The position numbers were made by a program, and so were the translations under genes. The notes beneath the pieces were generated by a model. The model was not told the origin of the DNA and made no database searches. It was given only the letters and a program-made list of their open reading frames with translations. 64,000 bases of DNA from Vulcanimicrobiota bacterium (lineage in GTDB: Bacteria; Vulcanimicrobiota; Xenobia; Xenobiales; JADMJV01): contig JBFWNU010000001.1 in assembly GCA_050250895.1 (NCBI GenBank), forward strand, positions 2,278,210-2,342,209, given 5' to 3'. This document shows, piece by piece, positions 2,618 through 25,672 of this stretch; within the stretch, counting starts at the first letter, position 1; the number at the start of each line of letters is the position of its first letter.

Positions 2618-2936
2618 AGAAGAACCTGCAAATTCGTGGTGAGACCACCTATAAAGAAGGTGGGGAGGAATTCACCCGTTTCACTAGAAAGTGCAGTCTT
2701 CTTGATCTTGAATTAGATTGTCGAATTGGAAATACCGAAGGAATCGCTCTGCAGCGAGGGCAGGTCCGGATCGGAGGGTGGTGATGGTGACATCGTGATA
2801 AACACTCTCCGGGGCGGATGTCTCTCAGGCTTAGGGTCTGGCAGTCTCTCCTCGAAGTTATCGCGGTTCGACCGCGAGACGCAATTCATTATCGGTATTA
2901 GACTACGAAAATTGACTAGGGAGGTGGGTTTGACTT

Positions 2937-5006: not shown

Positions 5007-5026
5007 TAGAACATCGTCGCCAACGA

Positions 5027-5066
5027 AGAGCGCCGTCCCCAGGGGCGGCGCTCTTTCTTTGTTTCC
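5027..5066 (+). terminator. Probable rho-independent terminator after pilQ
   Basis: GC-rich imperfect hairpin gagcgccgtcccc-a-ggggcggcgctc followed by TTTCTTTGTTT. Confidence 0.45.
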
Positions 5067-5404
5067 GGGATGGCCTTCTCGGGGCAGGCTAGAATGCTCT
5101 TCATTATACCATCCGCTGGTTTGGCTTGCAGGATCGCTTGACTTGGGAACCGAACCAAGTTCAACGACTTGAAGTTTAGTTCACGCGCGCCTGGAAAGCG
5201 ACCGTGAGTAGAACGGGCCACGACAATAGAGATAGGTCCGTGTGGCTGCTCTAGAATCAGCGTCGCGAACTGAAGAGCTACACAGTACGGGTTGGTACAA
5301 CTTGATCTCATTCGAAGGTAGGGCCTTTCACGGTCCAGCTATCCTAGTATTGTCCGACAACATTGTTCAGGGCTCCGTTATGTCCCATGGAAGGAGGTCC
5401 CACA

Positions 5405-8400
5405 ATGGCTGACGCTGTTGCTCTTCTTTCCGATGCCCAACGTTCGTACACCACCGGTGACTGGGACCAGGCGATCGACGCCTACAAGAAGGCCCTCGAG
5501 GCCGACCCGAACAATCGCGAAGCTTGCGAAAAGATGGCCAAGGTCTACGCCATTCGCGGGATGTACAAGTCGGTCATCTCCACCTATTATCAGCTGATTG
5601 ACATTCTCGAGTCGAGTGACGACCTCAATGGTGCTCTCGAGGTGGCCGATTGGGTGATGGCGCTCAAGCCCGACTCGGCTGAGGCCAGGGCCAAGCGCAT
5701 CCTGGTCTTCCAGAAGAAGGGCGACACCGAAGAGGTGGTTCGCCAGTCGCGCGGCCTGGCCAGGTTGTACATCGAACTCGGCGAGGGCGACAAATCGATC
5801 CAGCTGTTGCAGCAAGCCCAGAAGGCGGACCCTGATAATCTCGACATTGGGCTCGAACTGGCCGAGATGTATGTCAGCCATGGCCATATTCAGGACGGTG
5901 CAAATCAGTACCGCAAGGTAGCCAACGCTTTCCAGGACCAGGGCAACCTCGAGCGGGCCGCCGAGGCCTATAAGCGCATGAAGGTGATCGTGTCCGACGA
6001 CCCCGGCGTGCTGCTCACTCTGGGGCGGCTGTATGTCGACCTGCGCCGCTACAACGAGGCTGAGCAAGAGTTCCGCTCCATCTTAAGACACAATCTCAGC
6101 CACGAAGAGGCTTTGCTTGAACTGGGCCGCGTCTGTCAGCTAAAGGGTCAGTTCCGCGACGCCATTCTTGCCTTCAACAAGATCCTTTCCATCAACCCCG
6201 ACGTGGTCATGGCCAAAGAGAAGTTGGGTGAGCTCTACAAAGCTCAGGGCCTGGTGCCGGAGGCCATCAAGAATTTCCTGGCCGCGGCTCAGGCTTATCT
6301 CGAGATCGACGAGAAGGACAAAGCCATCCATCTCTATCAGATCGTTCTTGGTCTCGACACCAGCAACGCCACGGCTTGTCGCGAGTTGACCAACCTGGGT
6401 GCGCCACTCATCGGTATCGAACCCGAGCCAGAGCCCGAACCCGAGCCGGTGCCCGAACCGGTGGCGCAAGCCGAGCCAGAACCAGAGTTCGAGCCCGAAC
6501 CAGAGTTCGAGCCGGAGCCCGAGCCTGAAGTGGCGGTTATGCAACCTCCGCCGGCGCCCGCTCCGGCTGCTGGCGGCGGTCGTGCTAACGGTTTCGCCTC
6601 TTCCGAGCCAGCTATGGCTGGACCGCCGCGCGCACCCCGGGCAGGCTTGACTCCTCCTGATTCTCCCCGACCGGGGCTGACCACTCCCGAGTCGCCCCGA
6701 CCGGGCCTGACTGCTCCGGACGCGGCCGATTCGCCGAAGCGCGGACTGGTTCGTCGAGGCGGCGATGCTAGTGGCGGCTTGCGCCCAGGTCTGCGTGGCC
6801 CGGGCGGCCCCGGAGGTCCTGGTGGCAAACCTACGCTTGGACTGCGCGACCACTCCGGCCCTTTGCGCAAGGGACTCGAGCGCGAGGGTGGCGTGGGCGA
6901 CAAGCCTATGCTGATGCGCAAGCCCATGCTGGAGCGACGCTCGCCGGCTGACGAGAAGCCGACCTTGAGTCGGAACGAAGCCCCCCGGCCAACACCCGAG
7001 CCGATCAGCGCCCGCGAACCCGAACCTACCGAGTTCGAGCCGTTGGAGCCGCTGGAGCCGCTGGAGCCTTTGGAAGCGGTCGAACCGCCGGCCATCTCAC
7101 CCCCACCCGCCCTGCCTCCGCTCGAGCCCGAGCCTGAGCCCGAGCCAGAATTCGACGAGCCGATGGCCGAGGTCGAGCACGCTGAAGAAGCCGACTTCGA
7201 TGGCGAAGAAGACGAGAGTGGCGAAGAACGCGGTGGTCTCGGACAGAGCTTGCTCGGTTCACGCCAGGAGCGGCCATCTCTGCGAGGTGGCGGACTGCTA
7301 GGCGCCGGGCCGCGGCTGGGCATCAAGCCAGGTCCCTCCCTGGGAAAACCCAAGTTGGGTGGTCTCGGCGGTTTGCGCTCGACCAAACCCGAAGGGCGCC
7401 CTGGCGGTCTTTTGCGTCCCGGTCAGCCGACCGGTCGGATCGAGGATGACGAGCAAGGTGCCGAAGAATCGGCCTCTTTCGACAACCCCGAAGAAGTAAA
7501 CGGCCTCTTCTCGCAAATGCGTGACAGGGCGAAGCCTGCCGAGGCTCCTACGCCCAGTTCCGAATTGATGTCTCCCGAGGGAGGGCTTTTCGACGGCGAG
7601 AGATCTGAATCGGACAGTCTCTTTGGCGAGCCCGCTCCCGCCGGCGGACTGTTTGATTCACCGGCCCCCTCTCCGGCCCAGGATCTATTTGGCGAGCCAG
7701 AACCCGCTGGCGGGGGTCTCTTCGATTCACCCGCGCAGACCGACAAAGACGACCTGTTCGGCTCGTCCCCGGCTTCTTCTGGCGGCTTGTTCGACTCGCC
7801 GGCTGAGCCCGCAGGCGGGCTTTTCGATACCAGCCCAGCCTCTCGAGCCGCTGACAGCTTGTTCGGCGAGCCTCCGGCCCCCTCGGCCCCATCCAACGAC
7901 CTGTTCAGTGAGCCGGCGCCCGCGGCGACTGCCTCGAATGAAGACCTGTTCTCGTCGCCTCCGGCCTCCGAGCCGGCCGGCCTTTTCGAATCACCCGAAC
8001 CGGCTCCGGCCGATTCGCTCTTTAGCTCGGCTCCCCGCAATGAAGAGCCGCCGAGTCTTTTCGACTCTCGCCCGGTCGACGAGTCCTCGTTGGAACCCCC
8101 CTCGGCCGAGCCGGTAGCTCAAGACGGTTCCGATCCGTTCGGTTCCAGCCACGACCTCTTCGATCAACCGCCGCCAGCCGACGCCGACGGACTGTTCGGT
8201 GGCCAGGCCACCCAATCAGACCTCTTTGACCAGCCAGCGCCGGTTGCCGACGACCTTTTCTCGGCTCCCGCAGAGGCACCGGCGGCGGATCTGTTCTCGT
8301 CCGCCCCGGCCCCAGCCAGCGACCTGTTCAGCCAGCCGGCGGCTCCGGTCGAAGAGCCTGCGGCGCCCTCAAATGACCCGTTCCATCAGTCGGCCGCTCC

Positions 8401-11400
8401 AGCCAGCGACCTGTTCAGCCAGCCCGCAGCCCCGGCCGGGGACCTGTTCAGCCAGCCCGCGGCTCCGGCCGGCGACCTGTTCAGCCAGCCCGCCGCTCCG
8501 GCCGCCGACCTGTTCAGCCAGCCCGCGGCTCCGGCCGGCGACCTGTTCAGCCAGCCCGCCGCTCCCTCGAGCGACCCTTTCTCTCAGCCCGCCGCCAGCG
8601 ATGACCCGTTCAGTCCGGCACCTGCGTCGGCTGAGTCCGCCGAAGCGCCGGCCAGCGACCTGTTCAGTCAGAGCCCGGCCCCGGCTGGAGATCTGTTCAG
8701 TCAGACCCCTGCGCCGGCGGCCGGTGACCTCTTCGGGCAGTCTTCGGCTCCGGCGGCCGACCTGTTCAGCCAGACCCCGGCAGGTGACCTGTTCAGCCAG
8801 GCACCGGCCAACGAGCCTTTCAGCCCGGCCCCCGAGCCCGACCCGGCTCCGGCCGCAGACCTGTTCAGCCAGGCCCCGGCCGGCGACCTGTTTTCGGCTG
8901 CTCCCGTCGAGGCGCCCTCCTCGGGTCTGTTCGAACAGCCCGCCGGCGGTGACCTGTTCTCGGCTGCGCCTGCGCCGGCCCCAGTCGAGCAACCGGTGGC
9001 CAGCGAGCCCGCCCCCGCCGGGGGATTGTTTGACGAGCCTGCCCCCGAGGCCCGGTCCGAGCTGTTCAGCCCTGCTCCCGAGACCGCTCCGGCCAGCGAG
9101 GCGGCGGAAGAACTCTTCTCGCCGACCACGCCCGAAGCCCCGGCCGAAGCCGCTGCGGGCGGTTTGTTCGACGAGCCCGCCCCGGCTGCGGGTGGCTTGT
9201 TCGACCCTGCTCCCGCCGCTGGACTGTTCAGTGAGGCGACCGGTTCGTCCCAAGATAAGAAGGCGGCCGTGTCGGCGGCCTTCGAGCGCTTCCGCAAAGA
9301 CAAGCCCGGCGGCGGCTCGCAGGAGCCGGTGCCCGGAGAGGAAGAGCCCAGGCTCTCGAGCGAGATCGTGCTGCCCCCGCGTCCGCAGGACTCGCCAGAC
9401 TTCCTGCAGGCTCTTGAAGCGACCCTGCCGCGCCCGGCCTCGGCCGAGCCCGAGCCCGAGGCTGCTCCACCCAGCGTAGAGTTGGATCTCGAGCCCAGCC
9501 ATGAGTCAGCCGAGGTTCCGGTTGCTCCTCCTGCTCACGAGAGTTTCGAGATCGAAGAGCCGGTGGCCACGGCCGAGCCTGAGGTGGTGGTGCCCGAGGT
9601 GGTGCCCGAACCCGTGCCCGAGCCCGAACCCGAGCCCGAAGTGCTGGGACGACCCACCGTCTCGATGTCGATCGAGGAAGAGTCGCCAGACGAACATGTC
9701 TCCCAGGCCGACGACGTTCGCAACTCCCTGGGTGACTCTGATGTGGCGACCTCGATTAGCGTCTATCGTAAGGCTGTGGAAGAATCTCCCGACAACTTGG
9801 TGTTGCGCACCCGGCTCGCCGACATCCACATGCAGTATGGGCTGCTTGAGGACGCCGTCGTCCAGTATCGCCAGATCATCAAGCGAAACCCCGCTTCCAT
9901 CAGCCTTCGCCACCGCCTGATTCAAGCTCACCTTTGGAACGAGAGTCACGATCAGGCGGCTGCGGCCTTGATGGAGTTGGCCGAACTGCACTCCGAGCAG
10001 GGTAACCACCAGGACGCTCTCGACGCGCTCCAGACGGTGCTCAGTCTCGACCCTCATCACTTCGAGGCTCGCAAGCGTCTGGTCGACCGGTTCACGGCTC
10101 TCGATGAGGCCAAACTGGCCGCCCACCACTTGCGTCAATTGGCCGAGGCGGCCCTCACGAAGGGCAACGTGGAAGAAGCCATCAGCGCCTTCAAGCAGTT
10201 GATGGAGATCTCCGACGATCCCAGTTTCCAGGACCGGCTGGCCCAGGTCTACGAGAGCCAGGGAGACAACCAGCAGGCGTTGCTCCACTATCGTCAACTG
10301 GTGGCGCGCTACCAGAGCGAAGAGAAGTGGGAAGAGGCAGCTGCCGCCACCGAGCGTATCGCCGAGCTCGACCCCGAAGCGGTCGAGACCCGCACCGGTC
10401 TCATCGACCTCTACCAAAAGCTGGGTCTGACCGACAAGGTGATCGAGCAACAATTCGAGCTGGCTCGCTATCACCAGGTGCGCGACGAGTTACCTGAGGC
10501 GATTGCGCTCTACGAGCGAGTCGTGGCGGCGCGACCGCAGAAATACGATGCCCGCCGCCTACTGGTCGACGCCTATCTCGATTCCGGCAAGGTGCCGGCG
10601 GCGCTGCAGCAGTCCGAGGCGCTCACGGAGCACTATCTGACCACCAAAGACCACACCACCGCCATCGAACTTTACAGGCGATTGGTGGAGGCCGACTCCG
10701 AGAACGTCGAGCTACGCGAACGCCTGATCAAGTTCTACAACATGGCCGAAGACTCGACCAACGCCATGGAGCAGCTGCTGATCCTGGCTGGTCTGCACCG
10801 CGCCAACGAGCGCTACTCGCAGGCGGTGGATTGTTATCGCAGGGCGCTCGAACTTGACGAGTCGCGAGTTGACTTGCATTACGAACTGGCTCAGATCCAT
10901 GTCGACCACCTCGACGACCTCGAGTCGGCGATGCGGCAGTTCCGCCGGGTCTACGAGCTGGCCCCCACCAACCTCGAGGCCATGGAACGCTACATTCGCA
11001 TGCTGCTCGACGCCGGCAGCGCGGGCGAGGCGGGCGAGGTGCTCAATAAACTGGTCGAATCCAGTGACTCGGGCGACCAGGTTCGCGAAGCGCTTCTCTC
11101 CGAACTCAAAGCCAAGATCGAGCGCGACCCCGCCGACATGTCGGCCCGTTTCAACTATGGTGAGCTGTGCTTCCACCTGGGCGAACTTGACCTGGGTATC
11201 GAGCAGTTCCAGCAGACGCGCCGTGACCCGGCTTTCGAACTCAAGTCGTACAACATGTTAGGTCTATGCTTTGCCGAGAAGACCGGCTTCAATATGCTGG
11301 ACCTGGCCATCAAGCAGTTCCGCAAAGGTCTCGAGACCCGCGGTCACTCCGACCAGGATTATCTCGAACTCAAATACAACCTGGCGATGCTTCAGTATCG

Positions 11401-11533
11401 CAACGGAAGGCTCCAGGAGTCGCTTCAGGAGCTGAAGGATTGCTACGCCGTAGACATCGCCTTTAAGGACGTGCGCGAATGGGTGCGTCGAATCGAGGCG
11501 GAGATTGCGGGAGGGCCCCGCTTCCCGCGATAA
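5405..11533 (+). CDS. Giant TPR-repeat protein (2042 aa) with a ~1000-aa disordered PEPE / ΦLF-repeat core
   Basis: GGAAGGAGG RBS before ATG 5405 (the track ORF starts at 5363). N-terminal TPR of ~330 aa. Central low-complexity region (~nt 6410-9700) holds (EP)n tracts and about 45 DLFS/GLFD repeats. C-terminal TPR solenoid of ~600 aa. The C-terminal module is shared with the next gene. Confidence 0.85.
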   Translation: MADAVALLSDAQRSYTTGDWDQAIDAYKKALEADPNNREACEKMAKVYAIRGMYKSVISTYYQLIDILESSDDLNGALEVADWVMALKPDSAEARAKRILVFQKKGDTEEVVRQSRGLARLYIELGEGDKSIQLLQQAQKADPDNLDIGLELAEMYVSHGHIQDGANQYRKVANAFQDQGNLERAAEAYKRMKVIVSDDPGVLLTLGRLYVDLRRYNEAEQEFRSILRHNLSHEEALLELGRVCQLKGQFRDAILAFNKILSINPDVVMAKEKLGELYKAQGLVPEAIKNFLAAAQAYLEIDEKDKAIHLYQIVLGLDTSNATACRELTNLGAPLIGIEPEPEPEPEPVPEPVAQAEPEPEFEPEPEFEPEPEPEVAVMQPPPAPAPAAGGGRANGFASSEPAMAGPPRAPRAGLTPPDSPRPGLTTPESPRPGLTAPDAADSPKRGLVRRGGDASGGLRPGLRGPGGPGGPGGKPTLGLRDHSGPLRKGLEREGGVGDKPMLMRKPMLERRSPADEKPTLSRNEAPRPTPEPISAREPEPTEFEPLEPLEPLEPLEAVEPPAISPPPALPPLEPEPEPEPEFDEPMAEVEHAEEADFDGEEDESGEERGGLGQSLLGSRQERPSLRGGGLLGAGPRLGIKPGPSLGKPKLGGLGGLRSTKPEGRPGGLLRPGQPTGRIEDDEQGAEESASFDNPEEVNGLFSQMRDRAKPAEAPTPSSELMSPEGGLFDGERSESDSLFGEPAPAGGLFDSPAPSPAQDLFGEPEPAGGGLFDSPAQTDKDDLFGSSPASSGGLFDSPAEPAGGLFDTSPASRAADSLFGEPPAPSAPSNDLFSEPAPAATASNEDLFSSPPASEPAGLFESPEPAPADSLFSSAPRNEEPPSLFDSRPVDESSLEPPSAEPVAQDGSDPFGSSHDLFDQPPPADADGLFGGQATQSDLFDQPAPVADDLFSAPAEAPAADLFSSAPAPASDLFSQPAAPVEEPAAPSNDPFHQSAAPASDLFSQPAAPAGDLFSQPAAPAGDLFSQPAAPAADLFSQPAAPAGDLFSQPAAPSSDPFSQPAASDDPFSPAPASAESAEAPASDLFSQSPAPAGDLFSQTPAPAAGDLFGQSSAPAADLFSQTPAGDLFSQAPANEPFSPAPEPDPAPAADLFSQAPAGDLFSAAPVEAPSSGLFEQPAGGDLFSAAPAPAPVEQPVASEPAPAGGLFDEPAPEARSELFSPAPETAPASEAAEELFSPTTPEAPAEAAAGGLFDEPAPAAGGLFDPAPAAGLFSEATGSSQDKKAAVSAAFERFRKDKPGGGSQEPVPGEEEPRLSSEIVLPPRPQDSPDFLQALEATLPRPASAEPEPEAAPPSVELDLEPSHESAEVPVAPPAHESFEIEEPVATAEPEVVVPEVVPEPVPEPEPEPEVLGRPTVSMSIEEESPDEHVSQADDVRNSLGDSDVATSISVYRKAVEESPDNLVLRTRLADIHMQYGLLEDAVVQYRQIIKRNPASISLRHRLIQAHLWNESHDQAAAALMELAELHSEQGNHQDALDALQTVLSLDPHHFEARKRLVDRFTALDEAKLAAHHLRQLAEAALTKGNVEEAISAFKQLMEISDDPSFQDRLAQVYESQGDNQQALLHYRQLVARYQSEEKWEEAAAATERIAELDPEAVETRTGLIDLYQKLGLTDKVIEQQFELARYHQVRDELPEAIALYERVVAARPQKYDARRLLVDAYLDSGKVPAALQQSEALTEHYLTTKDHTTAIELYRRLVEADSENVELRERLIKFYNMAEDSTNAMEQLLILAGLHRANERYSQAVDCYRRALELDESRVDLHYELAQIHVDHLDDLESAMRQFRRVYELAPTNLEAMERYIRMLLDAGSAGEAGEVLNKLVESSDSGDQVREALLSELKAKIERDPADMSARFNYGELCFHLGELDLGIEQFQQTRRDPAFELKSYNMLGLCFAEKTGFNMLDLAIKQFRKGLETRGHSDQDYLELKYNLAMLQYRNGRLQESLQELKDCYAVDIAFKDVREWVRRIEAEIAGGPRFPR

Positions 11534-11624
11534 GTGGGGCTGGCACGCAGGACTTGTTAACGTCTTCGAACAAGAATGCCCTGACTATTGAACCTGTCGA
11601 ACCGTAGGAGAGCCCTGGCCTCAA

Positions 11625-14600: not shown

Positions 14601-16001
14601 CATCTTGAACGGGGCGAAGTCGACGAGGCGCTCGAATGCGTCAAGGAGATCGTCAATCTCCAACCGCTCAACCTCGAGCTGCGCCAGTCGCTGGGCGCGA
14701 TGTTCCTGCGCGCTGGCTTCTTGGAGCAGGGTCAAAACCTGCTCGAAGAGTTGGCCCGCGACGCCGAAGACAAAAGGGACAACGAACGTCTGCTACGGGT
14801 GCTGTGGACGCTGGTTCGCTCCTTCGAAGAGAACGAGCAGTGGGAGATCTCGCTCGAATATCGCGAGCGCATCGCCGACCTGTTGCGCTCGCTTGATCAA
14901 TGGCAAGAGGCCCACGAGGAGTATCTCAAGATCATCGAGGGCTACCTCATCCACGAGCAGAAAGAGCCCAGCGAGCCCATTTTCGTCAAGGTTATCGATG
15001 GCTTCTTCCGCAATCGCGTGGTTCCCGAGGGGCTCAGCAAGCTCGACGGCCTGGAAGAGTCGCTATCTGATGCGGGGCATCACAAGATGGCGCTGCTGGT
15101 TCGCGAGCGGACGGCCTCGATCATGGAGCGACTCGACGAGTGGGATCGGGCTATCGAGATGTACGACGGCATCTCCGAGCGCTATCTCGAGTTGGGCGAA
15201 GTCGAGCTGGGTCTCGAGTTCCGCCGCCGCGCCGCCGATCAGGCTCTAAATCACGAGCGCATCGAGCAGGGTGTCGAGCATCTCTTCGTGCTGGCAGGCG
15301 CCACCGTGGAGCACAGGGGACTCGAAGAGGCTCGGCCGGTCCTCGATGAACTGCGCAAGACGGCGCAAGATGATGTCGGCTATCTCGAGCGCCTGGGTGA
15401 TGTCCTGTTCAAACACTCTCTGTTCGAAGAGGCTCGTCCCATCTACGCCGAGGTGCTCGAACGAGAGCCCGGACGCCCCGAGGCACTCTCGCGGGTAGCC
15501 ATCATCTATGCCCGCGAAGGGCGCCTGGAAGAGGCCGCCGATGTGGCCAAGCAGATCTTCTCGAAAGGTCTCGTGTCCAGGATCATCAAAGAATATAAAG
15601 AAGCTACTGGTTTCACCGAGGGCGACGCTGGTTCGCACGTGCGTCTCGGGCAGTTCTATCGACAGATGGGCTTCCTGGAGGAGGCGATTCGTGAGTTCCT
15701 GGTCGCAAGCCAGGATCCCAGCCGACTGTTGGGCGCTTACAATCATTTGGCCCAATGCTTCCGGCAGCAGGGTTATTTGGAACTCGCGGTCAAGCAGTTC
15801 CAGAAGGCGCTCGACCAGCCCGGTTATCGGGACGAAGAGTTGCTTGAGTTGCGCTTCAATCTAGCCTGCGCGCTAGAAGATATGGGGCGACATAAAGCAG
15901 CCCTGGCGGCGTTCCAGGAGTGCTACGTCATCGACATCCGCTATCGAGAAGTGGCACAAAGGATCGAGGCCCTCATGGCGAATATGCACGCAGAGGTATA
16001 G
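11625..16001 (+). CDS. Giant TPR-repeat protein (1458 aa), paralogous C-terminus to the preceding gene
   Basis: Continuous TPR-like helical repeats throughout. Its last ~100 aa align with the last ~100 aa of the 5405-11533 product (LG.CF..G…LA.KQF.K.L…ELLEL.NLA…CY..DI). Confidence 0.85.
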   Translation: MPDQKEVIQQWIQHANTLATQGRWDEALAAYNKVVEVDQHNLDVRQHIISISLKKGNYSEVIHQHMDCAEIYHQQGDRDAAIERYEEILRLQETVEGHGSSFDGGGDAAQVHQLVSQVKPEIYHQIGDYHLERENVDLALQYLRKSQELQPGRWDTHMALGRAYMKKSMDKEAIGEFQEVLRLAPDESALAYENLGEVFVRQGRPPHSTVVWFQHAAEYYLKKQKLADATRAYERILEFDPQNKEILYNLGELYAQQGLKEQAVRTYRTLAELYEKEGLLDKVIQLYETVVSWDPDSQWATDKLISIYEGVLGRNSNNISVRVRLIEHLAAQGRRGELGPHYLALAQGHVERGMLDEAVKASRQLLELEPQNIQAREILGDIYLKKDMHSEALDIFQQIVKIYRAQGNEQAALQFQQRLVEVFPQAPELLYQVALSLRDKGDHEGALRELDRIIAQRPDDIKALAYKAELLGRLNRLDESIQTYARVLQMDPQRTDVRKLIIELLIKTNRLEESSRQIGVLSPDDPDIPALRSRIILLYIETRRLEQAEQELAYLPEENERRLVFRKELVKLYLDAGNLDKAFEGLPQIPRSDRERNSLVTRLLEIPLAKGDLETAAKTIHRLPEDDPLRLSFQRRLVASYVEAGRLDEAADECLRLPADDEARSGFVSRLIGGFLTQGELEKASREIYRLSEGDPLRNSFMGQLIEAYLSAGELERAAQEVGRLSREDEIRPRYHRRIIQAYLNASKFEEAERDILALDDSDPEKRSFLRLLIQKYLTLGQLDRVREVVNRMPDDMDEKKQYLDGLVHNYLDTGDLAGARHQIYQMAESEASQGNHKEAERLYREILAYQPADAEIRLRLSQEIAVQGQTERAREGMLVLAGRFHRENNVTSAADVYSRMLEVDPNDLNARYKLGTLWAEQGQTAQALEQFGALAKVYLEQNLPEVAQKVLNKILELDPKDMEHRRQAIRLLIRNLRFEEATEHYRALMGIHLERGEVDEALECVKEIVNLQPLNLELRQSLGAMFLRAGFLEQGQNLLEELARDAEDKRDNERLLRVLWTLVRSFEENEQWEISLEYRERIADLLRSLDQWQEAHEEYLKIIEGYLIHEQKEPSEPIFVKVIDGFFRNRVVPEGLSKLDGLEESLSDAGHHKMALLVRERTASIMERLDEWDRAIEMYDGISERYLELGEVELGLEFRRRAADQALNHERIEQGVEHLFVLAGATVEHRGLEEARPVLDELRKTAQDDVGYLERLGDVLFKHSLFEEARPIYAEVLEREPGRPEALSRVAIIYAREGRLEEAADVAKQIFSKGLVSRIIKEYKEATGFTEGDAGSHVRLGQFYRQMGFLEEAIREFLVASQDPSRLLGAYNHLAQCFRQQGYLELAVKQFQKALDQPGYRDEELLELRFNLACALEDMGRHKAALAAFQECYVIDIRYREVAQRIEALMANMHAEV

Positions 16002-16015
16002 CGGGAAGGGGTTAC

Positions 16016-17461
16016 GTGAAAGTTTTGTTCACAAGCGAAGCGACGCGGGGGCTTAGACGAATCGGGCTGGCCAGTCTGATAGCCCTCACGTCCATCCAGG
16101 CTGCTTGGGCCGACGAGGGCGGCTTTATGGATGTCCTCAAGCAGCAAGAGAACAACCTTTTCCTTGGCATGATAGGCCTCGGTGTGACCCTGGTGGTCTT
16201 GATCGTGGCCGAAGTCGTTCTCTCCAAGCGCGAGAGCAGTTCTTCACTCGATATCGACCGATTGGCGGCTGCGGCTCAGCGCAAGCAGCAGAGCGCGATG
16301 GCCGCCGCCGCGCAGGCTAACCCCGGGGGAGCCTATGCTCCGCCCCCTCCGCCTCCTCCGCCGCGTCCCGGGGCCCCGCCCCCACCACCTCCGCCGCCGA
16401 GCCCTTCCGCGGCCCCATTACCGCCCCCGCCGCCGCCTCCGTCGTTTGACGAAGACGTCAATCCATTTCAAAAATTGTCCCGCCTGGCCGCCGATGACGA
16501 GATGGCTCCGGTGGGCGCGCCGCCGCCGCCCCCGCCGCCACCTCCTCCGCCGCCTATGAGTTTTCCGTCGGCCGGTCCGGCTTCCGAGGAAATGGCTCCT
16601 CCGCCGCCGCCTCCGCCCCCGCCCCAGTTTGCGCCTCAGGGCAGCGGTGAGATGCCCTCCATGGGCATGCCCACCTCGCCACTCGGAGGAGGAGGATTTA
16701 ACGCACCGCCGCCTCCACCACCTCCGCAGGGCATGCCCACGGCACCCCTCGGAGGCGGTTTCAACGCACCCCTGGGCAGTCCGACCTCTCCCCTGGGAGG
16801 TTTCAATTCGCCGATGGGCACGCCGACGACGGCGCTGGGCAACCTCGGCTCTCCCACCACCTCCCTGGGCAACCTGGGCAACATGGGGACTCCGACCACC
16901 GCCCTGGGAGGCATTCCCGGGATGGGCTCGTCGGGTCCGCCCTCGCTCGAGTCGACCAGTCCTCTGGCCGGGCCCGGCGGAGAAGCCGGGGGTGGTGGCT
17001 GGGCCGACCTGCTCCAGCGCGTCCGGGCCGGAGAACCCGAAGCAGCATCTTTTTCGGGGGGCGGGGCTACACCGCCGCCCTCAACCGAAGACGAACCTCC
17101 TCGGCAGAGTCCGTTCCTGCCCACCGGTGGCTTTAATACCGGTGGTGGTGGCGGTGGGGGGGGCTCGTCTGAAGCTTGGGAAGCCCTTTTGAAGAAGACG
17201 ACCGGGGATGACCCCGGGCGTCCCAAGAAGCCCGGAGGAGGCGACGTCGGTCGCATCCAACTGGGCTCGGGCGAAGGTTTCTCGCTACCCGGCATGGGCG
17301 GCGACAGCGGAGGCAGTCCCCTGGACTTCCTCGGTGGCGGTAGGTCCTCTGAGGAGGGTTTACCCGATGTCGTCAAAAAAGCAAGCCGGACGATCTCTTT
17401 GGACTTGAAGAAGGGAGGGGGACAAACCCCGCCTCCCCCGCTTCCCAAGACTGAGGGATAG
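16016..17461 (+). CDS. Proline-rich single-pass membrane protein with polyproline (FH1-like) tracts and WH2-like motifs
   Basis: GTG 16016 follows a GGGAAGGGG RBS (the track ORF at 15920 overlaps the upstream stop). Signal-peptide-like LASLIALTSIQAAWA|DE. TM helix LFLGMIGLGVTLVVLIVAEVVL. Four runs of 8-12 Pro. Gly/Thr/Pro-rich tail containing ADLLQRVRAG and EALLKKT. Confidence 0.7.
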   Translation: MKVLFTSEATRGLRRIGLASLIALTSIQAAWADEGGFMDVLKQQENNLFLGMIGLGVTLVVLIVAEVVLSKRESSSSLDIDRLAAAAQRKQQSAMAAAAQANPGGAYAPPPPPPPPRPGAPPPPPPPPSPSAAPLPPPPPPPSFDEDVNPFQKLSRLAADDEMAPVGAPPPPPPPPPPPPMSFPSAGPASEEMAPPPPPPPPPQFAPQGSGEMPSMGMPTSPLGGGGFNAPPPPPPPQGMPTAPLGGGFNAPLGSPTSPLGGFNSPMGTPTTALGNLGSPTTSLGNLGNMGTPTTALGGIPGMGSSGPPSLESTSPLAGPGGEAGGGGWADLLQRVRAGEPEAASFSGGGATPPPSTEDEPPRQSPFLPTGGFNTGGGGGGGGSSEAWEALLKKTTGDDPGRPKKPGGGDVGRIQLGSGEGFSLPGMGGDSGGSPLDFLGGGRSSEEGLPDVVKKASRTISLDLKKGGGQTPPPPLPKTEG

Positions 17462-17469
17462 ACTAGCTC

Positions 17470-18384
17470 ATGCCAGCAGTATTAGGAGGCGAGTTGCTTC
17501 TCCCTAAAGGGAATGCCTTAATCGAGGACATCACGCTCCCGGTCCATGATATCGAGACGATGATCACGAATCTCGAGAGTGATCATTTCACTGGCTACGT
17601 TCGTCTGGATATCAGCGGAACCGAGGGGCTGGTATTCTTCTCATCGGGAGAAGTCTTGCGGGCCATCGAGCTTCCCAGCGGAGCGGACCCCATCGTCCGG
17701 TTGCTGCCTCGCGTCATTAATCTGGCCCGGCAACGGATGGAAGTGCCCGCTTCGTCCTACGTAATGAGCCCCCAGATCATCTCGGTGCTGTCGAGCGTTT
17801 TTGCGTTTAAGCCCAAATACAAAGACTACCAAGTCAAGCGTAAAGAGATGAAGAAGGTGCTCAACAGTCTCGAGCAAGATGAGTGCTCGGGCATCCTCAA
17901 GATGGTGGGTCCCGACGGTCGAGTGTGTCTGTTGATGGACCGAGGCAATCTGGTCACCGACCGGTTCGCCACCAACTACGGAGAGGTGGTCTGTGGAGCC
18001 GAATCGGTCAGCAGCGTGCTCGACTATGTGCACAAAAACGGCTCGACCATCCAGGTTTATGCCGAGAAGGCCAACGAGATCGACAACCTGCGCCGGCGGG
18101 CTGAAGACGAACTAGAAAAGATTCGGCAGCTGATCGTCAAAGAGAAGTCGGGCATGTTCCGAGCCAGTGACGTGGTCAAAGTGGCTGAAGACATCATTCG
18201 CGACTGGGGCATCGATATCAAGCAGACCTTCATGGTCGAGATCGAAACCGGCACCGGCGAACTCTTCAACTTCAAGTGCCAGGCCGGACGCAAACTGGGC
18301 GGCTACGCCGAAGTGCATTCAAATATGCTCAAGACCATGTCAGTCAACGAAGGAGACCTCGTCAACGTTCGACCGATCGGTTGA
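17470..18384 (+). CDS. Hypothetical protein, possibly tandem DUF4388/PATAN-like domains
   Basis: 304 aa, starts 9 nt after the previous stop. Two repeated segments (HFTGYVRLDISGTEGLVFFSSGEVL / ECSGILKMVGPDGRVCLLMDRGNLV) recall DUF4388 from memory. The domain call is unverified. Confidence 0.6.
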   Translation: MPAVLGGELLLPKGNALIEDITLPVHDIETMITNLESDHFTGYVRLDISGTEGLVFFSSGEVLRAIELPSGADPIVRLLPRVINLARQRMEVPASSYVMSPQIISVLSSVFAFKPKYKDYQVKRKEMKKVLNSLEQDECSGILKMVGPDGRVCLLMDRGNLVTDRFATNYGEVVCGAESVSSVLDYVHKNGSTIQVYAEKANEIDNLRRRAEDELEKIRQLIVKEKSGMFRASDVVKVAEDIIRDWGIDIKQTFMVEIETGTGELFNFKCQAGRKLGGYAEVHSNMLKTMSVNEGDLVNVRPIG

Positions 18385-18398
18385 CGTCAACACACACC

Positions 18399-18755
18399 AT
18401 GGCCGACCTGATGGATGTTCTACAGAACTTTTGCCGACTTGACCACGTGCAGGGAGCGGCCATTCTCGATGCCAACGGCTTCGTGGTAGAGCAGCATTTT
18501 GTCGGGGATCAGGATAGTGCTCCCGTGGGCGAGATTATCCTGCGCAGCCTTCAGGCGGGGATGCAACTGTCCGAAGAACTCGGCAAGGCACCTCTGACCC
18601 AGCAGTATATCGAATTTGCAGATGTCCAGCTGACAGCCGAAATCTTGACCGCGGGTTTCGTGCTGGTGATCCTGGCTGGAGCTGGGGCGAATCTTGGTAG
18701 GGTGCGTCTCGAGATTCGCAAGAACAAAGGTGCGGTAGAGCGGATGCTGGCCTGA
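18399..18755 (+). CDS. Roadblock/LC7 (MglB-like) domain protein
   Basis: 118 aa from ATG 18399. Roadblock-like core GAAILDANGFVVEQ…QYIEFADVQLTAEILTAGFVLVIL. The longer track ORF start at 18276 (GTG) is an upstream extension. Confidence 0.8.
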   Translation: MADLMDVLQNFCRLDHVQGAAILDANGFVVEQHFVGDQDSAPVGEIILRSLQAGMQLSEELGKAPLTQQYIEFADVQLTAEILTAGFVLVILAGAGANLGRVRLEIRKNKGAVERMLA

Positions 18756-19135
18756 TGAGTGCAAAGAAGATCCTGATCGTTGACGACGAGCCCCATGTGC
18801 TCGAGGTCTTGAGAGTCACTCTCGAGGACTTCGGCTTCAAGATTCTCGAGGCGATGGACGGCGAAGACGCCATCGCCACCGTCCAGGAACAGCGTCCCGA
18901 CCTCGTGGTCCTCGACGTGATGTTGCCTGGACGCGACGGTCAAGAGATTTGTCGCCAGCTCAAGGCTTCCAGCGACACGGCGGCCATTCCGGTGATCATG
19001 CTGACCGCCCGTAGCGGTCCCGAGAACGAGCGCGAAGGGCTCGAGGCAGGGGCGGATGCCTACTTGACCAAGCCGTTTAGCCCACTAACGCTGCTCTCCG
19101 AGGTTCATCGTCAATTGCAGCTTGAAATTGCGTAA
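18755..19135 (+). CDS. Response regulator, receiver (REC) domain only
   Basis: CheY-like motifs ILIVDDEP…LVVLDVMLPGRDG…TKPFSP. The ATG overlaps the upstream TGA (TGATG). Confidence 0.9.
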   Translation: MSAKKILIVDDEPHVLEVLRVTLEDFGFKILEAMDGEDAIATVQEQRPDLVVLDVMLPGRDGQEICRQLKASSDTAAIPVIMLTARSGPENEREGLEAGADAYLTKPFSPLTLLSEVHRQLQLEIA

Positions 19136-19144
19136 TAGGCCCCA

Positions 19145-20722
19145 ATGCGGCCGGACCTCGAAAAGCGACCACGTGAGCAGTTGCTCGCGCTCTATGAGAT
19201 AGGGCGGGCGATCAACTCTACCCTCGAACTCGAAGATGTGCTCGACCGGATCCTCGAGATGACGCTGGGGTTGTTCCATGCCGAGGCCGGCTCGATCATG
19301 CTGCGGCAGGACGATGTGTTGACCATCGCGGTGGCCCGTGGATTGACCGCCACGATCGTGGCCGAGACGCGCGTTCCCATCGGGGAGGGTATTGCCGGCT
19401 GGGTGGCCCAGACAGGCGAAATGATTCGCCTTGATGGCAAGGTCGACGATCCTCGCTTCGTCAGCCTGGTGGAGCGCGAGGACAACATCACGTCGTCGCT
19501 GTGCGCCCCCTTGCTCCATCGTTCTCAGGTGGTCGGAGTCTTGATGCTGCGGCGCGGGGGCGAGACCACCTTCACCCCCGATCAGTTAGATTTTCTGGCC
19601 TCGGTGGCCGATCAGGCGGCCATCGCTCTCGAGAATGCCCGTCTCTACGCCGAAGAGATCAAGCGCTCGAAAGAACTCGAGCTTGAACGGCAGAAGCTCG
19701 AGATGGTGCTGGCTTCGATGGCCGACGGAGTGGTGGTGTGTCACCCCGATGGCGAGATTCGGCGCCACAACCAGATGGCCGGCCAGTTGCTCGGCTGGAG
19801 CCAGGAGGCGGTGGGCCAGAAATTGCCGGAGCTGTGTCCGTCGCTGCCTTTCGAGCACCTGTGGGAGCAAGTCAATCAAGAAGGAACCTACGTCTGTGAC
19901 TTGCGCAGCGCCGACACGACCTTGCGCATCGTGGCGACTGCTTTGCGCTTTCAAGACGAGAGCCCCGAGGGATTGGTGGCTCTGTTTCATGACGAGACCG
20001 AACGGGCTCGGGTCGAGAAGATGAAGTCTGAGTTTCTCTCGATGGTCAGCCACGAACTCAAGACCCCGATCACCACCATCCAGGCCTTCGCCGAGCTGAT
20101 GCTCTATCGGGACTTTCCCGAGGAGCGCAAGCGCAAGTTTCTGCAGATCTGCCTTACCGAGTCGCAACGGTTGCAGAAGTTGATCGAAGAGATTCTCGGC
20201 CTGTCGCGGCTCGAGGCCGGACAGTTTGCTTTCCACAAGGTGCCGTGCCGCCTCGATGAGCTGGCTCGCAGTTTGCTGCCGGGTTTCGTGGAGCGTTCGG
20301 CCAGCCACGATATCCAGCTCAAGGTGCATGGCGACCTGCCCACGCTTGAACTGGATCCGACCTTGATGACCCAGGCCCTGTCCAATCTGGTCTCTAATGC
20401 CATCAAGTATTCACCCGACGGCGGACCCATCACCATCGAGCTAGGGGCTGAGCCGGAACGAATCCTGGTCTGTGTGCGCGACCAGGGGATCGGCATTCCG
20501 GAGGACAAGATACCGTTCGTGTTTGAAAAGTTCTTCCGGGTCGACAACTCGCTCACGCGCAAGACTGGAGGGACTGGCCTCGGCCTAGCGAACTGTAGAT
20601 ATATCGTGGAGGGCCACGGGGGCACTATCTGGGTCGAGAGTCAACCCGACCTCGGAAGCCGATTCAGCTTCACCCTACCCTGCCCCCCTTCCGCCCCAGG
20701 AGGATCGGATGCTCAAGTCTGA
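19145..20722 (+). CDS. GAF-domain sensor histidine kinase
   Basis: N-terminal GAF, HisKA H-box SHELKTPITTI, HATPase G-boxes (GIGIPED…GGTGLGLA). Confidence 0.9.
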   Translation: MRPDLEKRPREQLLALYEIGRAINSTLELEDVLDRILEMTLGLFHAEAGSIMLRQDDVLTIAVARGLTATIVAETRVPIGEGIAGWVAQTGEMIRLDGKVDDPRFVSLVEREDNITSSLCAPLLHRSQVVGVLMLRRGGETTFTPDQLDFLASVADQAAIALENARLYAEEIKRSKELELERQKLEMVLASMADGVVVCHPDGEIRRHNQMAGQLLGWSQEAVGQKLPELCPSLPFEHLWEQVNQEGTYVCDLRSADTTLRIVATALRFQDESPEGLVALFHDETERARVEKMKSEFLSMVSHELKTPITTIQAFAELMLYRDFPEERKRKFLQICLTESQRLQKLIEEILGLSRLEAGQFAFHKVPCRLDELARSLLPGFVERSASHDIQLKVHGDLPTLELDPTLMTQALSNLVSNAIKYSPDGGPITIELGAEPERILVCVRDQGIGIPEDKIPFVFEKFFRVDNSLTRKTGGTGLGLANCRYIVEGHGGTIWVESQPDLGSRFSFTLPCPPSAPGGSDAQV

Positions 20723-22139
20723 ACACAAAACGACCCTGGATCGCAAGATCGAACGTTTTCGAGGTATTCTCAATCGAGCCCCGGAGGATACTCTGACCGC
20801 CCTGGCTCTGGCTGAGGCTAGCTTTCGCAGGGGACTACGCCTGGAAGCGTTGACCGCCTATCAAGAGGTCAGCAAGAAGCACTCGGTGGCCGAGGCTCAT
20901 CTGGCCATCGCCCAGATCTACAGCCGTCAAGGCATGTTGGTCGAGGCGTATGAAGAGATCGCTCGGTTGCTAGAACTCGAACCCGAGAACATCGAGGCGC
21001 GATTGCTGGCCCAAGAACTCGAAGAGGTGCATCCCATTCCCGAGGGCATTCGCCTGAGCATCGGTCGGACTCCGTCGCTCGAGGCTATTCGCGAGACGCG
21101 CTTGCGCGTGAAGATTCAACGCGGCATCTTCACCCGCGAGATTCAAGAGTTGACCCGCAACGCCACCCTCGAACCGGCCGAGCCGATTCATGAATACTAC
21201 CTGCAAGAGGCCAAAAAGCGTCTGGCTCGGCTCGACGAGGTGATGGTTACCCTCGAAGAGATGGAACGTAGCGCCGAGAAGTTCTTGCCGCCCAAACCCG
21301 ACTTGATGACTCCCTTCGAGGCCAAAGAGAGCGAGCCGGTCGCACCTCTCGAGGAGCCCGCTCTGACCGATTACGCGCCCGAACCGGTGGCCTCGACCGA
21401 AACCGTTGCTGACGAGGCGGCCGTCATCCCGATCGATCCGGCACCGCTTGAAGAACTGCCTCTCATCTATGATGACGTCGGGGGCGAGAACATCTTCAGC
21501 ACCGATATTCCACCGGAATACGAAGACCTCAGCGAGATGCTCGATTTCGAAGGTGGGTCCAAGTCGGATTCTTTCGATCTTTCTCACATGTTCGACAGCT
21601 CTGAGGGGGGCGACGAGGTGGTGGTCGAGACCGACGAGCCGGTTGCGACGTTCGAGTCCGAGTTTGAGACCGAGCCCGTTTCGGAACCAGAGCCCGAACC
21701 CGAACCCGAACCCGAACCCGAAGCAGAGTCGGCTCCGGCGTTCATTCCTGACTCAGCCGCCCGGGATCAGTTCTATCTCGACATCAGCTCCAAGCTCGAA
21801 GAGCTGACCTCGACTCTTTCCAAGACCCGCGGAGTCACTTCGATCTTCGTGGTCTCGCGCCGCGGCCGCGTGGTTCAAAGCATCAGCGAAGACGCCATCA
21901 GCGCCGAGCGAGTCGGCGAGACGGTCGTCGAGGGTCTCGATTTCCTCGAGACCTTCGCCCAGGAGCCGGCCTATTGGGTGCTCGAGTGCGACGGCGGCAT
22001 CTTCATCATGCAGATCATCGACGCTCAGCACGTGGTGGTGGCCATCGGGCAAAAGGGCGCGAACTTCGGGGCTCTGCGCTTCACTCTCGACAAGAGCCGA
22101 CCCAAGTTCTCCGAACTTTTGGCCGATCTGCCGGGTTAG
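20709..22139 (+). CDS. TPR protein with acidic PE-repeat linker and C-terminal roadblock/LC7-like domain
   Basis: GGAGGA RBS, overlaps the HK stop. N-terminal TPR, (EP)n linker, C-terminal GVTSIFVVSRRGRVVQSI…YWVLECDGGIFIMQIIDAQHVVVAIG (roadblock-like). Confidence 0.75.
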   Translation: MLKSEHKTTLDRKIERFRGILNRAPEDTLTALALAEASFRRGLRLEALTAYQEVSKKHSVAEAHLAIAQIYSRQGMLVEAYEEIARLLELEPENIEARLLAQELEEVHPIPEGIRLSIGRTPSLEAIRETRLRVKIQRGIFTREIQELTRNATLEPAEPIHEYYLQEAKKRLARLDEVMVTLEEMERSAEKFLPPKPDLMTPFEAKESEPVAPLEEPALTDYAPEPVASTETVADEAAVIPIDPAPLEELPLIYDDVGGENIFSTDIPPEYEDLSEMLDFEGGSKSDSFDLSHMFDSSEGGDEVVVETDEPVATFESEFETEPVSEPEPEPEPEPEPEAESAPAFIPDSAARDQFYLDISSKLEELTSTLSKTRGVTSIFVVSRRGRVVQSISEDAISAERVGETVVEGLDFLETFAQEPAYWVLECDGGIFIMQIIDAQHVVVAIGQKGANFGALRFTLDKSRPKFSELLADLPG

Positions 22140-24500: not shown

Positions 24501-25498
24501 ACCGGCGTGTAGAGACCGCCCAGGTGGCGCAAGACCAGGCCTTTGAGTTCGAGATGCACCAGGGCCCGGGCCAGGGCCGGAGCGTCAAAGCCCGTCTTGA
24601 CGCTCAGTTCGGCCATACTCGAGCCGCCGGGGTCAAGAGCCTGGTAGACTTGAGCGAGCGGTTCTTCAAGCTGGGGCGGAGCAGCCAGCTGGGTCGCATA
24701 ACCCAACTGATCGATGATGTCGTCCACCCCGCGCACGATGGATGAGCCCTCATAGAGCAGTTTGTGAGTGCCGTCCGAGTTGGGGTTGCCCACGTGACCG
24801 GGGGCCGCCATCACGGTCCGGCCCAGATCCTGGGCCAGGTCGGCTGTGATCAAAGCGCCGCTGCGGAGGCCGGCTTCGACCACGACCACTACCTGGCACA
24901 ACCCGGCTACGATGCGATTGCGGGCCGGAAAGCGCCAGGCGGCGGGGGCGGTTCCGGCCGGGTACTCGCTGAGCAGACAGGCCTGGCGAGCCATCTGGGT
25001 CCGCAGGGCCCGGTTGGTCCGAGGGTAGTCATAGTCGAGGCCGCAGCCAAGCACGGCTACCGGGTGAGCCTCGGAGCGAAAGCTGGTCATGGCGCCCTGG
25101 TGGGCGGCCGAGTCGATGCCCATCGCCAATCCACTCACCACCACCACCCCGCGAGCGGCCAGGTCGGCACCCAGACGGTAGGCCAAAGTCCGTCCATAGG
25201 GAGTGGCCCGGCGAGAGCCCACGATGGCAACCCGGGGATGCTCGGGGCTGGGAAAGGGCAGCCCGGCGCGATAGAGCAGCGCTGGCGGGTCGCACAGATC
25301 CAGTAGCGAGATGGGATACTCCAGGTCCCCGGGAGTCAACGCCGCAAACGGATCGCTCGGGTTGCAGTGCTTCAATTTTAGGCGCTTGACCACGGCTTCG
25401 GGGCTGCCCATCTGTTCGACCAGAGCAGCGATCTGGCGCGGACCCAGTCGAGACAGACCCAGAGTCAGCCAGGCTTGGCGTCGGTTCGGGGCGCTCAT
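24497..25498 (-). CDS. dprA: DNA processing protein DprA (Smf)
   Basis: Rossmann-like DprA core VVVSGLAMGIDSAAHQGA. The start is taken at the internal ATG (MSAPNRR…) with a GAGGAG RBS; the longer track ORF runs to 25573. Confidence 0.8.
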   Translation of the reverse strand: MSAPNRRQAWLTLGLSRLGPRQIAALVEQMGSPEAVVKRLKLKHCNPSDPFAALTPGDLEYPISLLDLCDPPALLYRAGLPFPSPEHPRVAIVGSRRATPYGRTLAYRLGADLAARGVVVVSGLAMGIDSAAHQGAMTSFRSEAHPVAVLGCGLDYDYPRTNRALRTQMARQACLLSEYPAGTAPAAWRFPARNRIVAGLCQVVVVVEAGLRSGALITADLAQDLGRTVMAAPGHVGNPNSDGTHKLLYEGSSIVRGVDDIIDQLGYATQLAAPPQLEEPLAQVYQALDPGGSSMAELSVKTGFDAPALARALVHLELKGLVLRHLGGLYTPV

Positions 25499-25672
25499 CG
25501 ATGCTCCTCGGAGTAGCCAGCCGGCGAGAATTTTTCCATAGTGAGTGAACTCATGATTTGTTGCTCCTCTCACCGTCCAGTATGAAGCCGATTTAAGACC
25601 GTAGCGTGTCGAGCTTGTGAACGGTCGATTGCTAGGATGTTTCTAAATCCTTAACGTCGAATGGGCGGGCCT

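Follow-up and report, generated by a model that had tools for sequence, protein, structure and literature searches.

We analysed a 64,000-nucleotide stretch of the genome of a Vulcanimicrobiota bacterium (assembly GCA_050250895.1, contig JBFWNU010000001.1, positions 2,278,210 to 2,342,209 of the forward strand; hereafter, the window), which carries a block of nine co-oriented genes, g1 to g9, immediately downstream of genes for type IV pilus components. All on the + strand, these genes occupy positions 5405-11533 (g1, 2042 amino acids [aa]), 11625-16001 (g2, 1458 aa), 16016-17461 (g3, 481 aa), 17470-18384 (g4), 18399-18755 (g5), 18755-19135 (g6), 19145-20722 (g7), 20709-22139 (g8) and 22140-24500 (g9), and the successive gaps between them measure 91, 14, 8, 14, -1, 9, -14 and 0 bp. 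A previous sequence-only reading had delineated a co-oriented block at 5405-22139, and this holds for the eight + strand genes g1 to g8, with gaps of -14 to +91 bp; the span was correct for these genes but too short for the whole, because g9 also belongs to the block, given the 0-bp gap to g8 and its synteny in relatives, so that the unit covers 5405-24500, about 19.1 kb. Our analysis shows a single conserved gene unit, which we read as one functional unit, restricted to an uncultured lineage, the class Xenobia (phylum Vulcanimicrobiota/Eremiobacterota); it forms a lineage-specific operon, strongly conserved and in genetic linkage with the type IV pilus cluster. No published description of it was found in the literature examined.

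Conservation and distribution of the block

A genome scan with one genome per species, using a g4 alignment of 8 sequences, detected relatives of g4 in 18 species, all of the Xenobia lineage. Far from being scattered in these relatives, the genes keep the order g1 to g9, with g7 variably absent, in all 18 species loci as far as the contigs reach. The same order is found in additional metagenome loci (denoted L003, L025-L027 and L108-L111), down to 37% identity for g4 and 49% for g2. The full layout, from the A24 prepilin peptidase through PilM, PilQ and g1 to g9 to dprA, recurs in L025, L026 and the marine locus L111, alongside variants with PilNOP-PilQ upstream (L109, L022), without the kinase g7 (L018-L020, L110), or without both the kinase and the receiver g6 (L027, L108), and a reduced variant, L001, that consists of g3-g4-g5-pseudo-receiver-g8-g9. 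Genes g3, g4, g5 and g8 are common to all variants, including L001 and L027, which, together with the gene order kept across Xenobia, bears out the earlier proposal of a single unit. The 122-aa protein in the g6 position of L001 (11227-11595), without a Pfam hit and with the acidic pocket and phospho-acceptor Asp replaced, reads like a degenerate receiver. The block is uninterrupted in the window, as had been stated, but not in several relatives, where insertions of 1-4.7 kb separate g4 from g5 (L004 10415-11632, L006 10900-15600, L007 10969-13074) and encode a polytopic glycosyltransferase-like protein, GT2, NAD-epimerase, acetyltransferase or uncharacterised minus-strand proteins.

The closest proteins are named Candidatus Xenobia, Eremiobacterota or Vulcanimicrobiota. 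Some block-bearing metagenome-assembled genomes are labelled Burkholderiales, Selenomonadaceae, Chloroflexi or Armatimonadetes; those of L008, L011, L013, L014 and L022, with labels from the first three of these groups, carry the block at 46-57% identity. These oddly labelled genomes are probably mislabelled or mis-binned. A metagenome scan with the g1 N-terminus yielded 3 true orthologues and 77 generic TPR (tetratricopeptide repeat) loci. Giant TPR proteins of other phyla (P0261, P0262, P0264) were considered as relatives and set aside; such distant proteins sit in unrelated contexts and lack a disordered motif array, and the block was accordingly not found outside Xenobia. Under the name of the alga Phaeothamnion confervicola there is, in addition, a deposited fragment (P0044) with 76% identity to the N-terminus of g1; its most likely source is a Xenobia bacterium living in the culture of the alga, and such a culture might offer access to living material.

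Pilus genes flanking the block

Type IV pilus or type II secretion system (T2SS)-type genes adjoin the block in 9 of the 10 loci with a visible flank, in agreement with the pilus association suggested previously. PilQ lies directly upstream of g1 in 7 of these 10 (the window, L022, L024, L025, L026, L109 and L111), with PilM or PilNOP in front of it; the prepilin peptidase comes before these wherever the contig is long enough (window, L022, L025, L026, L111). A prepilin-type gene adjoins the reduced block of L001, and the pilus cluster of L022 itself contains a Wzy_C-TPR gene. In L110, two PilC-like T2SSF gene sets lie upstream: two tandem five-gene sets (88-9648, - strand), divergent upstream of g2 with no g1 between, each encoding a T2SSF/PilC-like protein, proteins of ~590, 127 and ~210 aa, and a Ser/Thr kinase, that of the second copy running off the locus end.

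The window's own pilus genes, all on the + strand, encode the A24 prepilin peptidase (235-1086; Pfam A24_N_bact 94.6 bits, Peptidase_A24 55.5 bits), syntenic in L022, L025, L026 and L111, the pilus assembly ATPase PilM with an actin-like fold (1517-2617; PilM_2 159 bits) and the PilQ secretin with AMIN, STN, Secretin_N and Secretin domains recognised by Pfam (2937-5006). The next gene after pilM is pilQ, at a distance of 320 bp (2618-2936), and no pilN/O/P homologues are detectable across the 64-kb window; this layout is shared by L025, L026 and L111, and pilN/O/P are retained before pilQ in L022, L024 and L109. The leader between pilQ and g1 (5007-5404, +) has a lower GC content (53.8%) than the window (62.5%), as noted previously; the length of ~358 bp given for it, however, corresponds to 398 bp to the ATG at 5405 and 356 bp to an upstream TTG. 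The leader begins with a terminator-like hairpin (5025-5056; 14-bp stem, 9 of 14 pairs G-C, then a T-run), the best such site in a scan of the region, and ends with a ribosome-binding site, GGAAGGAGG, before the ATG.

Proteins encoded in the block

The domain repertoire had been labelled eukaryote-like, a description that is mostly superficial, although the TPR domains, the polyproline runs and the Roadblock domains of g5 and the g8 C-terminus are real. Seven of the proteins, g1-g5, g8 and g9, reach no NCBIfam model, with just generic TPR, receiver and kinase similarity below cutoffs across the block.

The g1 protein combines two domains assigned to Pfam TPR families (aa 1-340 and 1441-2042) with a disordered region of 1100 aa between them (aa 341-1440); it has no hydrophobic segment or signal peptide and is predicted to be cytoplasmic. 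Orthologues share 47-76% identity in the N-terminal domain and 52-63% in the C-terminal domain, the latter falling to 35% in the diverged locus L027. The disordered region is blocky, with acidic PE repeats, basic G/R/P/L-rich stretches and then an array (7505-9304, +; aa 701-1300) that holds 45 of the 46 (D/G/S/E)(L/P)F motifs of the region, compared with 5.6 +/- 2.2 motifs (maximum 13) in 2000 composition-preserving shuffles. The motifs are spaced by ~11 aa, and the spacers are acidic and rich in Pro, Ala and Ser; the array has a net charge of -80 over 600 aa, 18% charged residues (16% D/E) and a phenylalanine density of 8 per 100 aa. The earlier label of FG-like repeats is in line with a match to Pfam Nucleoporin_FG (48.8 bits, cutoff 32.2), but this match reflects composition: the real motif is (D/G)(L/P)F, in 46 copies, and just 7 of the 48 phenylalanines of the array stand in FG dipeptides. 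Such an acidic-aromatic motif array beside giant TPR proteins is genuinely unusual for bacteria.

Recent tandem repetition at the DNA level is limited to 33 bp x 5.2 copies, and the remaining motif copies have diverged with the core retained. Across orthologues, the pattern (D/G/S/E)(L/P)F, for which the numbers are roughly twice those of strict D(L/P)F wherever both were counted, occurs 24-37 times as DLF-type motifs in proteins near the window type (17-19 by strict D[LP]F in those counted) and 30-70 times as near-perfect AQDPFGAP-type DPF motifs in the deepest group; another group has PFG/FG-rich repeats, and one lineage (L007, L009, L010, L109) retains just four EE(D/E)LFAGP copies. Because the core persists while spacers and copy number turn over, the target of selection appears to be a short linear motif and not a fold. 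In the array-poor lineage, the g1 C-terminus, g2, g5 and g6 are less similar to those of the window than g4 and g7 predict, an anecdotal comparison that hints at co-evolution of these parts.

Three observations concern the annotation of g1. Within 6500-9500, the disordered region has 66-73% GC and long spurious open reading frames on both strands (for example, 8199-9479 + and 8369-9502 -), which automatic gene callers could mis-annotate. In L023 (196-6313), g1 is split into reading frames of 407 and 1629 aa, possibly through a frameshift or a repeat assembly error, and L024 (3291-5577) has two tandem g1-N-like TPR genes after pilQ.

The second giant protein, g2, is a cytoplasmic solenoid made up entirely of TPR matches in Pfam, which, together with those in g1, substantiate the TPR assignments made previously. 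It is the most conserved gene of the block, with ~48 orthologue clusters at 49-99% identity and lengths of 1442-1484 aa; among the loci of relatives, its identity is 57-70% at fixed length, compared with 37-57% for g4. The C-terminal ~550 aa of g2 are paralogous and collinear to the g1 C-terminus (26% identity, E 8e-28). Nothing comparable to g2 was found elsewhere, the best outside matches being ordinary TPR giants in unrelated contexts. Neither g2 nor any of g4-g8 has a hydrophobic segment or signal peptide.

By contrast with these cytoplasmic proteins, hydropathy assigns g3 a signal-peptide-like N-terminus and one transmembrane helix (aa 45-72) with a positive cytoplasmic side, which leaves a Pro/Gly-rich, disordered cytoplasmic tail of ~390 aa. 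The polyproline reported previously takes the form of six runs of 7-12 P in the tail, which also contains two W-x-x-L-L-basic motifs; GGWADLLQRVRAGE and AWEALLKKT are among its motifs, and its C-terminus, RTISLDLKKGG..PPPPLPKTEG, is conserved. The acidic-aromatic motifs NPF, EDPW/EDPF-x-x-L-L, GGWADLLQRV and AWEALLK(K/R)T are kept with the C-terminus in all lineages, including the distant L001, and one lineage lacks the polyproline runs with the W/F-x-x-L-L motifs kept. No Pfam or NCBIfam model matches g3. The WH2-like character previously attributed to it is not supported: Pfam detects no WH2 domain at E<0.01, the helix-like motif lies at aa 329 and LLKKT at aa 388 and not within one ~20-aa unit as in WH2, just the two W-x-x-L-L-basic motifs are left, and g3 is an inner-membrane protein of a housekeeping-type operon.

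The AlphaFold2 model of g4 (pLDDT 91, pTM 0.83) consists of two alpha/beta domains of the DUF4388/PATAN-like type (aa 15-110 and 114-200), a helix (201-216) and a double-psi beta-barrel (219-303). The two N-terminal domains are related to each other (hhalign 95%). Pfam DUF4388/PatA_N is matched at E<0.01 by 35 of 43 members of the g4 family (best E 2.4e-7), and remote relatives found with the family profile pass the DUF4388 cutoff. In fold searches, the barrel alone was matched, as Cdc48-N-type, and no solved structure was returned for the PATAN-like part. The full-length protein is represented by 43 clusters among 5.8 billion proteins and by ~37 representatives among 1.84 billion, and the tandem N-terminal module has 398 hits in total at E<=1e-3, ~360 of which match that module only, with varied C-termini. 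One remote relative of the module, P0105, also matches the archaeal family DUF2226, which hints that the tandem PATAN-like module may reach into archaea. PATAN is the output domain of cyanobacterial PatA-type regulators and binds PilB1 and PilC in Synechocystis (bioRxiv 10.1101/2021.06.11.447907).

The remaining cytoplasmic proteins are of signalling types. The single-domain protein g5 belongs to the MglB type of Roadblock/LC7 (Pfam Robl_LC7 38.4 bits, cutoff 23), with weak sequence matches in PDB to a Robl_LC7 protein, CvnB5 and MglB (E about 0.5 for MglB). A second Roadblock domain forms the C-terminus of g8 (~345-476), after an N-terminal TPR/helical domain (aa 1-190) with a weak Pfam TPR_2 match and an acidic disordered region (~191-335; net charge -38 over 145 aa); it aligns with the g5 family at an hhalign probability of 98.3% (E 1.9e-14, 110 columns). 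The Roadblock domains proposed before are thus confirmed in g5 by Pfam and in the g8 C-terminus by hhalign, but not in g4, the N-terminal domains of which score below 1% in hhalign against both the g5 and g8 families. The two-component pair is also confirmed by Pfam: g6 is a single-domain receiver (Response_reg 108 bits) with the phospho-acceptor set DD...D...T...K intact (DD, D54, T and K as read from the translation), and g7 is a soluble GAF-PAS-HisKA-HATPase histidine kinase, without a transmembrane segment and with an H-box, SHELKTP, also read from the translation. The two proteins thus show the classical two-component features, a kinase with HisKA and HATPase_c and a receiver with acidic pocket, T and K. 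A search for an MglA-type GTPase by tblastn with an MglA query and by a P-loop scan found none in the 64-kb window and the loci of relatives covered by this search, where the sole P-loop open reading frame is MutS. The g4-g5 insertions of relatives were considered as the place of such a GTPase and rejected, as they carry glycan-synthesis or uncharacterised genes.

The last protein of the block, g9, is a polytopic Wzy_C (O-antigen-ligase-like) membrane protein with about 12 hydrophobic segments and a C-terminal TPR domain (Pfam Wzy_C 49.1 bits and TPR). It is syntenic in most loci, at 26-38% identity; a PDB sequence search did not discriminate between the WaaL, Wzy and PglL subtypes.

Downstream of the block, dprA (24497-25573, - strand) converges on g9 with a 4-bp overlap and is kept at this position, followed by hslV, in L003, L013, L015, L016, L018-L020, L110 and L111; this may connect the block and the pili with DNA uptake, as dprA encodes a DNA-processing protein of natural transformation. 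Farther along the window lie genes for a PAS histidine kinase (26207-28003) and a GAF-GGDEF diguanylate cyclase adjoining mutS (30977-32575) and, 16 kb downstream of the block, genes for a 204-aa prepilin-type (N_methyl) protein and a DUF7305 protein (40139-42114), probably minor pilins. Scans for tRNA genes and Rfam families returned no matches in the window.

Discussion

The block resembles several known bacterial systems, none of which accommodates it. Like FimV/HubP of Pseudomonas and Vibrio, which organise type IV pili and other polar machines, it encodes a membrane anchor, a very large, acidic, repeat-rich cytoplasmic region and TPR (PMC12918733), but these features are split among the anchor g3, g1 with the acidic array and TPR, and the TPR protein g2, with an acidic region also in g8; TPR content is far larger and the repeat chemistry different. 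LysM, the periplasmic peptidoglycan-binding domain of FimV/HubP, has no Pfam hit in any block protein, and the FimV C-terminal TPR motif TIGR03504 reaches 25.5 bits, below the cutoff of 30.65, in the g1 N-terminal domain. The MglA/MglB/MglC/RomR module of Myxococcus, with SgmX and FrzS, likewise involves Roadblock and receiver domains, a Pro-rich disordered segment and a large TPR protein controlling pilus formation (PMC9481161, PMC11580455), whereas the block lacks a nearby GTPase gene, which in MglA/MglB modules is usually adjacent, has different domain fusions and adds the PATAN-like/barrel protein, the kinase and the motif array; the SgmX model NF052243, with a cutoff of 1800 bits, scores 142.9 bits for g2 and 39.7-48.9 for g1. 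Cyanobacterial PatA-type regulators may share with g4 the DUF4388/PATAN-like domain, a likely output domain, to the Pfam model of which the window protein shows weak similarity; these are PATAN-CheY proteins, whereas g4 has two PATAN-like domains and a barrel, with the receiver on a separate protein, g6. Actinobacterial conservons (the four-gene CvnA-D G-protein systems) also encode a histidine kinase together with an MglB-type Roadblock protein (PMC13343842), but the block lacks the DUF742 protein and the small GTPase, and its kinase is a soluble GAF-PAS protein paired with a normal receiver. Because at least one defining feature is missing in each comparison, we do not consider the block to be a member of any of these systems, even if it may, by analogy, work like a FimV/HubP or an Mgl/SgmX network. 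A more distant likeness, an analogy without sequence homology, is to eukaryotic multivalent networks of motifs and solenoids, such as endocytic DPF/DLF/NPF arrays and kinesin light chain TPR with W-acidic motifs: here too, a short acidic-aromatic motif is repeated many times in a long disordered region, and large helical-repeat proteins that could read it are encoded alongside.

Our tentative proposal, a reading of the domain composition, gene context and motif arrays, is that the block encodes a scaffold-and-switch module, cytoplasmic but tethered to the membrane, which is coupled to the machinery of the type IVa pilus; we regard this as a serious possibility, short of probable. Under this model, g3 would anchor the assembly in the inner membrane, its cytoplasmic Pro-rich tail displaying amphipathic motifs and the C-terminal peptide, and the TPR domains of g1, g2 and g8 would be receptors for acidic-aromatic motifs, namely, the 46 (D/G)(L/P)F motifs of g1 and the W/F-x-x-L-L, NPF and C-terminal peptide of g3. 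Short peptides, whether acidic-aromatic or C-terminal, are established ligands of TPR grooves, as in kinesin light chain/W-acidic, Hop/EEVD and PEX5/PTS1. A receptor role is suggested for g2 in particular because this protein is unusually constrained compared with g4. Such a multiplicity of ligands and receptors could produce a multivalent network or hub beneath the inner membrane, to which g4 and the Roadblock pair of g5 and the g8 C-terminus, probably a heterodimer, would be attached as adaptors or switches that link it to the pilus motor or platform. The kinase g7 and the receiver g6 would set the state of the assembly in response to an intracellular signal, and g9 would be a co-localised glycan transferase, the target of which is perhaps pilin (as an O-glycosylase) or a surface polymer. 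The module would thereby act on where pili are placed, how many there are or how active they are. The polarity or landmark function suggested before is plausible by analogy, considering the acidic disordered region with TPR, the Roadblock and PATAN-like domains and the single-domain receiver. In a more elaborate form of the model, the module would be a membrane-tethered multivalent condensate or mesh on the cytoplasmic face of the pilus machine, composed of the TPR receptors (g1, g2, g8) and the D(L/P)F, NPF and W/F-x-x-L-L arrays, convergent with eukaryotic endocytic/cargo-adaptor networks, and switched by the kinase/receiver pair and by GTPase-independent Roadblock and PATAN-like adaptors; we consider this form quite unlikely.

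Several observations weigh against the scaffold-and-switch model. Roadblock proteins normally act with a small GTPase; here, Roadblock domains are present, yet no small GTPase was found in the 64-kb window or in any locus covered by the search. The array is nearly lost in the L007/L009/L010/L109 lineage and so is not indispensable. For the g4 of the window itself, the assignment to PATAN is weak (20.4 bits, below the cutoff of 25). An insertion-sequence (IS) transposase and a Fic gene, and no pilus genes, lie upstream of the block in L027. The predicted terminator after pilQ implies that the transcript of the block is separate from that of pilMQ, so that the block probably has a promoter of its own instead of depending on read-through. 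Finally, the constancy of g9 and the glycosyltransferase insertions would be just as compatible with a role in envelope glycans.

This last point leads to the possibility that g9 is the effector at the centre of a complex for envelope glycans or pilin glycosylation, regulated or scaffolded by the other proteins of the block, with the adjacency to pil genes being secondary. Indeed, g9 is found behind g8 in nearly every locus, the reduced L001 and L108 versions among them, extra Wzy_C fragments lie downstream in L108, and the g4-g5 insertions encode glycosyltransferase-type membrane proteins, GT2, epimerase and acetyltransferase. However, g8 runs straight into dprA in L013, which lacks g9, and L027 has no g9 match, though this locus ends ~430 bp past g8; moreover, the block of the window contains no flippase, polymerase-partner or chain-length genes, the cytoplasmic proteins take up more than 85% of its coding capacity and are more conserved than g9, and the sequence search left the WaaL, Wzy and PglL subtypes of g9 undiscriminated, so that we deem this explanation unlikely, if credible. 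A comparable standing, improbable without being far-fetched, is given to a GTPase polarity module with an MglA-type GTPase encoded elsewhere in the genome, in which g5 and the g8 C-terminus would be an MglB/MglC-like GAP or platform for it, g6 and g3 would take the role of RomR, and g1 and g2 would be SgmX-like effectors that activate pili at one pole. Two Roadblock domains, a single-domain receiver, a Pro-rich disordered protein and giant TPR proteins next to pilus genes are all in place for such a module, MglB, MglC, RomR and SgmX of Myxococcus form a network of this kind (PMC9481161, PMC11580455), and in Bdellovibrio a TPR protein is the partner of MglA at the pole that bears pili (PMC3983030). 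Against it stand the lack of an MglA-like gene in the window or the loci covered by the search described above, the score of the SgmX model, far from its cutoff, the location of the receiver and the Pro-rich region on separate proteins, and the weak similarity of g5 to MglB.

The idea of a selective barrier, also raised by the sequence-only reading, would make the g1 array a nuclear-pore-like cohesive FG meshwork that gates, for example, DNA or pilin at the pilus base. Such a barrier is very unlikely despite the Nucleoporin_FG score above cutoff, a phenylalanine density like that of FG domains (PMC4283134) and the conserved dprA neighbour: cohesive Nup98 FG domains are ~2.5% charged and highly charged FG regions are non-cohesive (PMC4283134), unlike the array with its 18% charged residues and net charge of -80, few of its phenylalanines are in FG dipeptides, g1 has no membrane or pore anchor, and one lineage keeps the block with the array nearly absent. 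It is extremely improbable that g3 is an actin effector aimed at eukaryotes, in which polyproline would bind profilin and WH2-like segments would bind actin, and that the other proteins are eukaryote-like effectors as well. The g3 segment ADLLQRVRAG resembles the WH2 helix of WASP and ALLKKT contains LKKT, which, with the six polyproline runs, we count in favour of such a role. Yet no Pfam WH2 hit is obtained, the helix and LKKT belong to different g3 motifs ~60 aa apart, g3 has a transmembrane anchor with a cytoplasmic tail and shares its operon with cytoplasmic regulators, and the lineage without polyproline keeps the W/F-x-x-L-L motifs.

Should the scaffold-and-switch model be wrong, the block would still be a robust, lineage-defining gene cluster of Xenobia. 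Should it be right, it would assign functions to families that lack one, namely, g3, g4, g8 and the tandem PATAN-like module with its about 400 cluster representatives, and the succession of DLF, DPF, PFG and near-loss would provide a natural series of motif variants for the study of such arrays. Marine relatives of the order have been described as large-genome, possibly predatory bacteria (PMC9259500). A possibly predatory class would then organise its pilus machine by means of disordered motif arrays and helical-repeat receptors, a principle documented mainly in eukaryotes, and the block would represent a new solution to the placement and regulation of envelope machines in bacteria.

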